From Styela clava (lineage: Eukaryota), in the NCBI RefSeq assembly GCF_964204865.1, contig NC_135264.1:9052001-9116000 (forward strand): DNA of 64,000 nt. The letters run 5' to 3'. Each line of letters opens with the position of its first letter. Position 1 is the first letter of the stretch. The notes beneath the pieces are model-generated. The model had not been told where the DNA came from, made no database searches, and was given only the letters and a program-made list of their open reading frames with translations. Position numbers and translations under genes: made by a program. Shown piece by piece: positions 11,101-15,349 of the stretch.

Positions 11101-14100
11101 CATATGCATCTCTGTCAGCTCTTGTATGTTCATGCTCGAATCCAAGCAAATGCTTGAGCTCATGATGAACAGTTCTCGATAGATCACATCCCCAAGCAAG
11201 CGAAACAATCTGCGGGGACTCATAATACTCGAGGCTACCAACCAATGATCTGAAAAAGATGCATTTTCTTTTAAAAATATAGGAATGAGGTTATTTCCAA
11301 GAACTTAACATACAAAGAATTTTCTACTCAATAGCTGTCTCCCTGATGTCATTAACATAAACTTTTTTCCATACAACGCTTGCTGGTACTTTTTGCGTTG
11401 AATAGCCCTTTACAAGCATTCACTGATATTGATACTGAGCTATACAAAATTTCGGTTCGGAAGTCTTTGACTTCTGGGCCAAGGCTGACAGACCACATTC
11501 ATGCAGCCAGCCAGGTTGTTTACTGTGGATTGTGCTATAATGAGTTTGCATAGCATAGCATTGTGCTATGCAGACTTTTAAACTACTAGTATTTTATAAA
11601 GGTTGAAGTATGATTTGTGATTTTGATTAGACTGCACTGTCCATCTACATCTTGATGTAGGGTTCGAGACTTTCTCCCGTGTATGTATCAAATCTTGCAC
11701 TTTGGGGGACATTGGTGTTGAGTTCTTTTTTTCATAACTCGCAGAACTATTATTCTAACATTCAGTGCAATATTTGAATATTTTACCCAGCACTACTATG
11801 TATCCAGTAATTAATTATTGACTTGATTGATTTTTCGTGAATATACTTGCTTTTTATTATTATGTAAAATATACCAAAATCTGAACTTGGCCGGTATTAA
11901 GTTTGATGAAAAATATTTGCGATCCGCAATGTGAAAAAGGCCGATCATACTAAAAAGGTTGGGCAGGTCTGTATCTCTACCCCAAAATAGCTGTCCATAT
12001 AGTTTCAGTATCTTTTGGCATATTAGTTCTCCCTTGTTTCTTCGCTAATACATCAATCTCCTAAATTTTAAGTGCGCAAAACCTAGCTTTGAGCAATCTA
12101 CCTTAAAATAATATATATCGAAAGGCTGAAAAGCAAAAAAATGCACATAACAGGTATGTTCGTAACGGGTATGTCACTTGGGCATCGCAGCTGCATTTAA
12201 AAGTGGTTCAGACACAATTCGAGAGTTCTTTATCAGATACAGGGGCGTAGCCAGAAATATTCAAAGAGGGGGGGTTCTGAAATTTTTTTTGCCAAGTTAG
12301 ATCGAAACTGCTAGCGGGTCCGATCGAACGCTTGAATAAGCGTGTTTTTAGTAGTCTTGTGTGTCTAAAAAGCATTTTAAGCCACGAAAAATTGCTATCT
12401 ATGATACAGAAAAATGTTTTTATTTTTATTTTTTAATTTCAAAAGGGAGGGTTTCGACCTGCAAAACCACCCCCTGGCTACGCCACTGATCAGATACGAA
12501 TAAAAAATCCATGCAAAAGTCGTAGTGAACATTACTGACAGAATTATTCAAGATCTTATTGATACTCACGAGCATCCAAGATCAGAGTTGAATGTAATGT
12601 AATGTTTTTCATTTGTTTTTGGTACAAAATCAATACATGTAGTTTCTGAGATCCTTTTGATAACTTTTTCTATGACAGCAACCTTACGTTTTTCTAATTT
12701 AATAAAAAATAAACTTCTTGAGTTTACTGTCAACCAACATTTTTTCCCACATGTTGCAAGACATTTTAATCAGGGGAAATTTTTCAATTACAGGCAGGTA
12801 ACAATCAATTTCAAATGTAATGACTAGTTTTGTTAGATTAAAAAAATATAGTACAGTCAGGCATCATCTACATAACTACTGACTGAATAAGTAAAAAAGA
12901 CTTGTACATAATTTGGTCTTGAAATTCATCACTCAGACAGACAGCTGAAAACAGTTTGAATAAATACAATATTCTTAATTACTCGTCTAATCGAAATTTA
13001 GAAAAAAACTTAAAAAAAGTCTAGACTTTTTCCAAATATTATTATTTTGTAAAATTGATCATAATACACTATTTTAATATGAAATGGGAAAATTGTTCAA
13101 TGATAAAACGTTAAATGGTTAAACTGGAGCATAATAAACTCAGTGCAGGTAATTGCAAATCTCACCCAGTGAAACGGCAGGATCAAAAACATATCCTATC
13201 TGATATCTTCCATTTACTTCATGGTCTTTCCATAATACAGTGGTAGATTCAGCTGATCCATAAAACAGATCAAAATCGTCCTCATCAACGTATCCGTACC
13301 TCTACAGAAAGTATTGAAAATCAGTAGTGTCTTATATTTAACATCGAATATGAATTCTACAAATTGACAGAATTAGAAGATTGATCCCTAAGCAAAGTTA
13401 GGGAAGATGATCAAAGTGCCAACACCCACTGACGCCATGAAGAATTATAGAATTAGAAATATAGTGTAGTATTGTGTGAGAGGATCAAGTCAATATGATC
13501 AGAAAAAAAAACTATGATGTAGTAAATTCAATCTTACTGAAATTCTTGGGACAGAACTTTGAGCATAAAAATTGTAGACACATTATCAATAAATTTGTGG
13601 AAGACAGCTTTAGGGCACATCTGAATATCTACTCGATAAAAGATTCCCATTTGAAAAGAGCACATTATGCTAATTTTTTTAGTGTGCGATACTCTATTTA
13701 TAAGCTTGTGGTAAATTTTATTCACAAATGAATTGATAGAAAAAAAAATTACTGAAAGTTATTGGTTATGAATATGATACATGCTATTGGCTACACACTA
13801 TTCCAACAGAGGGTGAAAAGTGTGAAAAATAGAGAAAGAATTCAAATAAAGCTGAAGTATTTGTTTTACATGACTAATAACCGTATTTTCATGGCATTTG
13901 GACCAATTGCAAAGAAATAGAAAAAATTCAGCAACAAATGGGAAACCTTTGATTTTATGATTTTTCGTTTTTGTTTATTTGATAAGGCAAAAAAAAAACG
14001 TTTTTTGACAGAATGAATCGAAGATGGTGAGAATGGGTATAAATTCAGAATACGAAGACCTACTTCAGACATGGATTTGACCTGCGAAGGAAGGAACCTC

Positions 14101-15349
14101 ACATCCCCTTGGAAAAGTCCTGCAGGTGCACATTCGCAACTAATTTGACATCCAGTTACAGGATCACTTTCAAAGTCGAATGGACAGGAAGTATCACAAA
14201 CTGATGAAACGAACGTACAATTTGACCCTGAATATAAATGGATTGATTCGCTGTGCTTGCAAATTAATAGTGATTTGCGAAATGACACAAATATATAATA
14301 ACGAAAGGTACAAAATTCATGTAGGCCTAATGAAATAAAACTACCTATACGCAGCTGTCTTTTAAAAGTAATATTCAAATTTATAAATCTTGAATAGAAA
14401 ACATACTCAAGCAGGCATTTGCTTCTATAGCTGAAGGATTTTCAAGTTCACATGACATTTTTTCAAAAAATCTTGGATCAATGGAGTCATCTCCTGAAAA
14501 ACAATTTATATAGTTTCAACCAACCAATTAAATATCACTATATGTTCAGTCATAGTCTAATTTATTTAAAGTTTTATGATATATAACAAAGGCACGAATA
14601 TTTAGTATTCAGCATTAAAAAGCCCAGTTTCGCTATCTACACAGAGTCACTACTGAAGTCAATATTCGTCCCGCGTTGTACGTCAATCAATAAGAAAGGT
14701 CACTTTAGATGGGTTATACAATTACCGGGTCAGGCGAAGTAAACTGCTATTTAACGCCAACCACGGGCCGTAAAATAAACGCCGTGACTTCTGATTTAAC
14801 GCCAAACATAAATTTAGTGTGTATCTTTCAAATTTTCCAAAATGAAGTCTGTCGTTGTTTGGCGTTATTTGAGCACCTATCGCGGTGTATTTCGCTATAC
14901 CCCACTTACCTTGCATCAGTAGCGCAAGTATAGCTACGACTATGCCGATCACAACCAAGAGAAAAATAACCGCAATAATCAGCATCTTCTGGTCTGAGGA
15001 AAGAAACAAAATAATTGATTTTGAATGGCGAATATCATCATAATATCTACGCAAGCGACGTCAAAGCACAGCATAATTATCTAACCTTGCCACATAGAAA
15101 CTATGTGAATAACACGACTAGAAAAAGCTCTGCAAAAGGCATTGAACAGTGGCAATTTTCTGTGAATGTGCAATGAATATACATTTGAGATAGTCTACGA
15201 GGCAAATTTACCGCTAAGTAAAACCGGCAAAGTTCTTCGGAAATAATTATGCGATTATTAACAGCTTACAGTCGTTGTCGAGTTGTAACTAGGAAAAAAC
15301 AAAAATAAGATACCTCACCGGCACTAGATTTCTTTGACTGCTTTTCCAT
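3637..15349 (-). CDS. Gene A: type II membrane astacin-family zinc metalloprotease with antistasin-like module, 6 TSP1 repeats, Thr-rich linker and 3 FG-GAP-like repeats (18 exons, ~861 aa)
   Basis: Exons 5'->3': 15349-15319, 14993-14910, 14493-14407, 14227-14064, 13301-13166, 12693-12570, 11249-11071, 10361-10122, 9419-9303, 8497-8377, 7727-7587, 7400-7251, 6537-6397, 6172-5882, 5636-5533, 5178-5046, 4561-4415, 3832-3637. All introns GT..AG, phases consistent, total 2586 nt, no internal stop. Motifs: [68 protein letters not shown], WxxWxx[17 protein letters not shown]. Confidence 0.9.
5945..6090 (-). repeat. Coding Thr-rich minisatellite (mucin-like), 3 units, gene A exon 14
   Basis: Units of (G/E)xYSS(T/A)LYTn-P encoded by TCATCA(A/G)CATTGTAC(ACA)n. 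Confidence 0.9.
8100..8335. mobile_element. MITE with ~80-bp TIRs (GGTAC..GTAGTATGTGAACCAAGATGGCGGACACC)
   Basis: Left GGTACCCTTGTAGTATGTGAACCAAGATGGCGGACACCG matches the reverse complement of right CGGTGTCCGCCATCTTGGTTCACATACTACGGGAGTACC. ATAT flanks. Relatives at 2184, 25826-26022 and 54644. Confidence 0.85.
10122..13301 (-). CDS. Gene A astacin catalytic domain (exons 5-8)
   Basis: Astacin signature HExxHxxGFxHExxRxDRD in exon 11071-11249. Met-turn SVMQY and C-terminal KLYDC in 10122-10361. TTCIDF and GCSS cysteines in 12570-12693. Confidence 0.93.
10745..11070 (+). mobile_element. Degenerate tRNA-derived SINE abutting the gene A exon-7 donor
   Basis: B-box GGTTCAAATCC, family body, and 3' end GGGATAAATAGGTAAATCCTATCCTAC. 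Confidence 0.75.
12240..12488. mobile_element. hAT-type MITE
   Basis: TIR CAGGGGCGTAGCCAG...CTGGCTACGCCACTG with perfect 8-bp TSD ATCAGATA. Confidence 0.9.

Follow-up and report, generated by a model that had tools for sequence, protein, structure and literature searches.

The Tast family, named from Ciona sperm (PMC6353882), has been described in Ciona robusta and Halocynthia roretzi with an architecture of a transmembrane (TM) segment, an astacin domain and TSP1 repeats (PMC6353882, PMC11673157). Type II topology and a pro-domain lying over the active site were also shown for it (PMC11673157). The structures of astacin zymogens show an extended pro-peptide running across the cleft and, within its F-x-G-D-I motif, an Asp that binds the zinc (PMC9629494). 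The 64,000-nucleotide stretch of Styela clava DNA analyzed here (contig NC_135264.1, positions 9,052,001 to 9,116,000; called the window, its first letter being position 1) carries genes that share with the described Tasts the type II TM segment, the astacin domain, the TSP1 repeats and the tandem clustering, but differ from them by a Lys within the zinc motif (HELKH) and by a larger number of TSP1 repeats. In the pro-region of gene A of this cluster we found a six-Cys module that is very probably homologous to antistasin-type domains and that, on balance, appears to serve as a structural support of the zymogen.

The six-Cys module and its kinship to antistasin

The module is encoded by exon 4 of gene A (14064..14227, minus strand), which also encodes the switch motif and a pro-peptide helix, and by exon 4 of paralog C (31283..31446, plus strand). 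Each of the two is a whole exon of 164 nt, bounded by AG..GT, entered in phase 1 and left in phase 0. The two peptide strings given in a preliminary description, which named no strand for A, were present in them and were followed by F/Y-Q-G-D-V/I. Contigs from four of four runs (presumed RNA, three studies) joined exon 4 of A to both neighboring exons, and all junctions from exon 1 to exon 9 were covered by the contigs of the four runs taken together. The exon model, which covers the first 524 residues, reads identically to the N-terminus of P0005, a protein of 861 aa whose source label is Styela clava. Within this protein the module extends from Cys71 to Cys100 (14130..14219, minus strand) with the spacing C-x6-C-x3-C-x11-C-x3-C-x-C; in C, the Cys codons lie at 31291-31380 and are followed by Y-Q-G-D-I. 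The domain order in A is a short tail, a TM helix, a two-Cys stalk, the six-Cys module, F-Q-G-D-V, an acidic linker, astacin, TSP1 and an FG-GAP-type tail. As judged from its sequence, this Styela clava gene is spliced and codes for a membrane astacin of type II topology that carries TSP1 repeats, the architecture of a Tast.

For a comparison beyond the window, a profile search among 1.84 billion representatives gave 94 proteins at E values up to 0.001, and in 64 of 106 proteins collected the module stood directly before a switch-type motif ("fused"). The fused set decreased from 65 to 64, with 188 free repeats, after P0077, a false fused assignment, had been moved to the free set. The nematode astacin P0021 was left out of the free repeats, and P0039, P0060, P0072, P0089, and P0097, which look fused but missed the pattern, are outside the 64.

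The preliminary description had proposed an antistasin-like module inside the pro-region, and this proposal is supported by hidden Markov models (HMMs), by a profile-to-PDB match and by weak fold evidence. Antistasin (PF02822) was the sole Pfam family matched by exon 4, with 19.6 bits (E 0.0013) for A and 14.2 bits (E 0.067) for C, both under the gathering cut-off of 21.2 bits. When the exon was used as a query against the genome, 17 matches were obtained: in 16 of them a clear module precedes a GD-type motif, and the 17th is divergent. All 16 Styela paralog exons matched Antistasin, which was the top family in 15 of them and reached at least the cut-off in 7 (best E 3e-8). A profile of the paralogs matched hirustasin in the PDB with an E value of 2e-4 over 32 gapless columns, guamerin with 0.004 and bdellastasin with 0.023; gigastasin was also among the six PDB sequences listed at E values up to 10. 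An HMM built from the 188 free antistasin repeats gave scores of 27.1 for A and 23.9 for C. Neither score was reached in 500 shuffles each that kept the cysteines in place, a test that is partly circular because the free repeats come from proteins found with the module profile.

Structure comparison pointed in the same direction by the identity of its matches, but not by their significance: of 350,542 chains searched with Foldseek, two matched the exon 4 model (pLDDT, the predicted local distance difference test, 87), namely, hirustasin and guamerin, at 1.2-1.3 Å over 24 columns with weak E values of 4.5 and 9.1. The ESM Atlas search was uninformative (best match 0.75). We considered that the likeness to antistasin might be one of Cys spacing only, the module being an unrelated, Tast-specific stalk domain with a convergent cysteine knot. 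Such convergence would agree with the scores of A and C below the Pfam cut-off, with the weak Foldseek E values, with a single-sequence phmmer search of exon 4 against the PDB that gave five weak matches and no antistasin, and with a wide VIA-align search of the exon 4 model that had no match with Z of at least 2, a result of little weight for a core of 30 residues. However, 7 of the 16 paralogs scored over the cut-off, no Cys-fixed shuffle reached the real score, and the only two Foldseek matches were antistasin-family inhibitors. Convergence is therefore highly unlikely in our estimation.

The six-Cys pattern with x3, x10, x2-3 and x1 spacing and the G-F/Y-x-x-D-x-x-G core is present in the fused copies, the spacing between the first and second Cys (C1 and C2) being a variant. 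At the first Gly of the antistasin pattern, A and C have Asp, whereas Gly is found in 28 of 29 canonically spaced relatives. From the reactive-loop Cys on, the Cys spacing is shared with the leech proteins hirustasin (1hia/1bx7), guamerin (3bg4), bdellastasin (1c9p), and gigastasin (5ubm), and a G-Y/F-x-x-D-x-x-G-C hairpin is common to both groups. In contrast, the first Cys of the module lies two residues further out than in the leech proteins, and a Phe occupies the leech Cys position. An antistasin-type inhibitor unit comprises ten Cys with an N-terminal four-Cys subdomain. This complete unit was not found in the Tast module. Upstream of it, 33 of 36 long proteins had two (rarely three) Cys at variable spacing, and in the model of A these lie in helices that take the place of the four-Cys subdomain. 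In A, they are Cys53 and Cys66 in two predicted helices of the stalk encoded by exon 3 (14407..14493, minus strand). Since the last three Cys gaps fit the register of hirustasin, this pair was considered as a vestigial antistasin N-subdomain; this is unlikely, as the first gap ranges between about 12 and 28 residues and helices are seen in the model.

Scaffold, inhibitor or docking surface

Downstream of the module lies the pro-peptide motif F-Q-G-D-V (14100..14114, minus strand), whose Asp109 is predicted to block the zinc as the aspartate switch (motif as defined in PMC9629494). Asp109 follows the last Cys of the module by 9 residues and was present in all 43 sequences aligned. The distance of 9 residues was found in 60 of the 64 fused copies, though the filter admitted a wider range. 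Residues 7 to 13 upstream of the motif touch the catalytic domain in pro-LAST (PMC9629494), and by alignment the last strand of the module may occupy the register of these contacts. Among the 29 canonically spaced copies, the conserved features were a Phe two residues after C1 (29/29), the P-x-G-Y/F-x-x-D hairpin (Pro 23/29, Gly 28/29, Asp 22/29), and a Ser before C5 (23/29).

At P1, the characterized leech inhibitors, which are free, secreted proteins, carry Arg, Lys or Met (PMC6265900). The Tast module, in contrast, occurs as a single copy within a zymogen and has Asp or mostly small or acidic residues at P1. In the profile alignment, the residue after the second Cys of the module stands opposite Arg of hirustasin, Met of guamerin and Lys of bdellastasin; it is Asp in both A (Asp79, 14193..14195, minus strand) and C. 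P1 was Arg or Lys in only 4/64 fused copies compared to 47/188 free repeats, and any of R, K, M, L, F, or Y in 8/64 compared to 88/188. Pro was found at P2′ in 21/59 fused copies but in 9/171 free repeats, and at P1, P1′ or P2′ in 23/59 fused copies. The entropy of P1, P1′, and P2′ (3.3 to 3.5 bits in the 29 canonically spaced copies) was among the highest in the module. In both AlphaFold models, of the full protein and of the exon, DSSP assigned a short helix to P5-P3, whereas canonical inhibitor loops bind stretched, as a β-strand on the P side (PMC12038735).

The preliminary description had also called the module far more conserved between paralogs than the catalytic domain. This was confirmed for A and C, with 27/30 identical residues in the module (90%) and 129/209 in the catalytic domain (62%), but other noncatalytic parts were equally conserved (N-terminal tail and TM segment, 32/38 or 84%; C-terminal region, 129/141 or 91%), and it did not extend to four more distant homologues, in which identity at the non-Cys positions of the module (17 to 38%) was about equal to or below that of the catalytic domain (31 to 40%). 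Pooled over A, C, D, and E, the ratio of the proportions of nonsynonymous and synonymous differences (pN/pS) was 0.26 for the module, 0.34 for TM segment and stalk, 0.30 for the pro-peptide, 0.24 for the first TSP1 repeat, and 0.60 for the catalytic domain; pN alone was 0.060 for the module, 0.051 to 0.083 for the other noncatalytic parts, and 0.173 for the catalytic domain. These values suggest that the catalytic domain is the outlier, that the module is ordinary for its protein and that it seems specially conserved mostly because the catalytic domain evolves fast. The roughly 2-fold-increased pN/pS of the catalytic domain (0.60 versus 0.24 to 0.34) among the tandem paralogs (10122-13301 in A, 31906-33944 in C, and paralogs D and E, L018-L019) might be what is expected for egg-coat lysins diverging in specificity.

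We are inclined to regard the module as a co-opted antistasin scaffold, a rigid, disulfide-bonded prop that keeps the pro-peptide above the membrane, and not as a serine protease inhibitor, a reading we hold with modest preference. It is based on the nearly fixed 9-residue distance, the conserved scaffold positions, a P1 residue mostly other than Arg, Lys or Met, the P5-P3 helix and a Foldseek alignment to hirustasin and guamerin limited to 24 columns, and on a module pN/pS in line with that of the other noncatalytic parts. The module is also kept in proteins without the catalytic Glu (5/35) and in five homologues that appear secreted and not anchored (labelled by eye). Furthermore, the pro-peptide is mostly extended in solved pro-astacins, and the last strand of the module lies in the contacting register. 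Of the three options offered in the preliminary description, the structural one fits best. The connectivity of antistasin disulfides is 1-4, 2-5, 3-6, and the six Cys of the module would likewise form three disulfides. Module and two-helix stalk could then act as a disulfide-locked pedestal that raises the zymogen off the membrane and keeps the switch loop aligned above the zinc, and the module might shield from stray cleavage the upstream pro-region that is extended in solved pro-astacins. A cut at the acidic/aromatic junction between pro-peptide and mature enzyme would free the protease, leaving TM segment, stalk, and module behind.

Several points weigh against the scaffold. Solved pro-astacins are latent without such a module (PMC9629494). 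The Fisher p-values of the fused-versus-free contrasts (0.001 and 5e-7) overstate independence because both sets are related and profile selected, so that the contrasts are descriptive. The bootstrap ranges of pN/pS overlap for module (0.07 to 0.80) and catalytic domain (0.48 to 0.76), and only pN separates them (0.022 to 0.104 versus 0.143 to 0.205). Genuine inhibitor families are known for their variable reactive loops, so that variability alone is compatible with inhibition. P1 was Ser, Thr or Ala in 29/65 copies, which could suit elastase-like enzymes, and Asp or Glu in 14/65, which could suit acid-specific proteases; moreover, the loop D-T-S is identical in three of the four cluster paralogs.

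The module might be a working canonical inhibitor: the loop following its second Cys would bind a serine protease preferring acidic or small P1 residues and so guard the zymogen from early activation. The gapless match to hirustasin spans the reactive loop, and the hypervariability of this loop fits inhibitor families. The spacing of 3 between C2 and C3 is kept in 60/65 fused copies, but that between C1 and C2 is 6 in 56/65 compared to mostly 4 or 5 in free repeats. The serine proteases acrosin and spermosin are present on ascidian sperm, but they are trypsin-like (PMC11673157), and Asp at P1 would not fit them. Together with the rarity of Arg or Lys at P1, the frequent Pro at P1, P1′ or P2′ and the helix predicted at P5-P3, this makes a working inhibitor quite unlikely, and neither the sequence of the reactive site nor the loop shape in the models supports a protease inhibitor guarding the zymogen, as proposed in the preliminary description. 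Equally doubtful is the more specific idea of a live antistasin inhibitor retuned to an acidic or small P1 residue that blocks or captures Tast's own activating protease, with the stub tethered on sperm timing egg-coat lysis. If true, a serine protease inhibitor would be built into the pro-region of a metalloprotease, and a module-bearing membrane stub would stay on the sperm after activation.

A third reading concerns activation. Exon 5 of A (13166..13301, minus strand) encodes the acidic end of the pro-peptide and the predicted junction, presumably near Tyr136-Gly137 as placed via the conserved Trp position in mature astacins. In A and its homologues, the junction is acidic and then aromatic and mostly lacks Arg or Lys (Arg/Lys in 5/35, Phe/Tyr/Leu in 22/35, the placement being approximate and wrong for a few rows). 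A junction of this kind indicates a nontrypsin activator, and its sequence suggests a chymotrypsin-like one. The Tast activator is not known (PMC6353882), and the sperm proteasome has been floated as a candidate (PMC11673157). The module could be a docking surface for the activating protease or another partner on the sperm surface, or it could hold the mature enzyme noncovalently on the membrane stub, in either case without inhibition. Type II topology implies that activation would otherwise shed the enzyme; the eight Cys before the junction form an even set, so that the mature enzyme of A is not expected to be tethered covalently. Two positions that do not belong to the antistasin core are conserved specifically in Tasts, Phe at C1+2 (51/65) and Asp at C1+3 (39/65); they would be consistent with docking, but packing against stalk or pro-peptide explains them equally well. 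In addition, homologues without a clear TM segment also have the module, and no partner was identified in this analysis. We consider docking unlikely, though less so than a working inhibitor.

Gene A, its cluster and the spread of the module

The remaining parts of gene A, all on the minus strand, conform to the Tast architecture. The coding part of exon 1 (15319..15349; exon model and contigs) provides the start codon and a short tail, and exon 2 (14910..14993) encodes the signal-anchor, the single N-terminal TM segment of A. Its hydropathy is 3.6 from residue 15, after the short polar tail (model helix 9-37), and its type II orientation is predicted. Exons 6 to 8 (10122..12693) encode the astacin catalytic domain (Pfam Astacin, E 9e-16), in which both the HExxHxxGxxHE zinc motif (11132-11164) and the Met-turn, SVMQY, were found. 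The downstream exons (3640..9419) encode TSP1 repeats, a Thr-rich stretch and an FG-GAP-type C-terminal region according to precomputed Pfam annotation of P0005, which includes PF00090 after the catalytic domain; TSP1 structures were also among the Foldseek matches of the full model.

Five paralogs are located in the window and the 36 kb beyond it (A and D on the minus strand; B, C, and E on the plus strand). All five have HELKH (11132-11164, 17277-17309, and 33310-33342 for those in the window), which among 35 other motifs was found only in P0030. An extra Cys after the zinc motif (HEHC) is present in C (33226-33403), D, and E and absent from A and B; it would be unpaired in the catalytic domain of C. 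Paralog B (15766-24422, plus strand) lacks exons 1 to 3, the module and the switch motif. A remnant of about 21 nt from the 3′ end of exon 4 is left at 15938..15958 (plus strand) with an in-frame ATG at 15950, and nothing matching the last three exons turned up in 24422-29900. In one contig, from another sample, the truncated leader of B was spliced to exon 5 and the next-but-one intron was retained. Paralog B is probably a decaying pseudogene in which the whole pro-region was naturally lost. Elsewhere in the window, an intron of C (39123-42660) contains open reading frame fragments resembling, by eye, a LINE-type (long interspersed nuclear element) retroelement. A pair of 820-bp inverted repeats with 95% identity lies between B and C (24865-25684 and 28308-29121), and a short repeat family (26573-26928) has several copies across the window.

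In the Styela genome, 15 of the 16 modules had an astacin zinc-motif exon within a few kilobases downstream on the same strand (37 such exons in the genome), and the 16th module matches P0010, which has an Astacin domain. A module was thus detected for under half of the astacin exons found. Matches to PF02822 in the genome numbered 10, 7 of them module exons and 3 grouped at another locus, and 7 of the 9 matches over the cut-off were in astacin genes. The other locus (G000:C17:124557-125457), with two of its three matches over the cut-off, is a candidate stand-alone antistasin-repeat gene.

The carriers named among 30 looked up were Styela, Ciona intestinalis/robusta, C. savignyi, and Clavelina, and they include the Tast1, Tast2b, and Tast2c clusters; the module is present in Ciona Tast1 (P0061, XP_002131733.1), Tast2b (P0125), and Tast2c (P0136). 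A catalytic-domain tree of 39 rows left open 15 of its 36 inner branches and did not show a single origin of the module or a secreted-first order. P0006, P0008, P0010, P0011, and P0044 lack the catalytic Glu (HMLMH, HVLMH, HMIYH, HQLMH) but keep the module and the switch Asp, and by these motifs they are likely pseudo-proteases. The exon-like fragments P0085, P0088, P0092, P0100, P0102, P0089, and P0097 show an antistasin spacing closer to the classical one, followed immediately by a QGD/EGD-type motif; they are possibly astacin fusions outside the Tast group, and a search for full-length relatives of P0085 gave one candidate and none that was significant.

Comparison with known zymogens and significance

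Pro-astacin (3lq0), pro-meprin β (4gwm), and pro-LAST (8a28) share the F-x-G-D-I/V motif and the catalytic fold with A (PMC9629494), and all three were among the top Foldseek matches of the full gene A model. Their pro-peptides are mostly extended with little secondary structure (PMC9629494), whereas the upstream part in Styela is predicted to be a folded, Cys-rich module. The Styela zymogen further differs from the solved ones by its N-terminal membrane anchor and by a junction that mostly has no basic residue.

The words "antistasin" and "cysteine" do not occur in the main texts of PMC6353882 and PMC11673157, whose figures or supplements could mark the region. No astacin-antistasin fusion was described in the accessible texts of the literature searched, with ascidian, Ciona, and Styela clava angles included and subscription journals outside the scope, and the accessible part of PMC7851590 contained nothing on such a fusion. 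PF02822 is already part of the precomputed annotation of one Styela paralog, P0006. The fusion is a real, family-wide variant that is built from known parts and was apparently undescribed before; as these parts were already known, the surprise is a moderate one.

Tasts are leading candidates for the ascidian egg-coat lysin, and their latency and activation were posed as open questions (PMC6353882, PMC11673157). With 7 of the 9 antistasin matches over the cut-off in the genome residing in astacin genes, an inhibitor fold was likely recycled as a structural part of the zymogen. The folded pro-region unit is common to the Tasts of Styela, Ciona, and Clavelina and provides residues with which their latency and activation can be tested.

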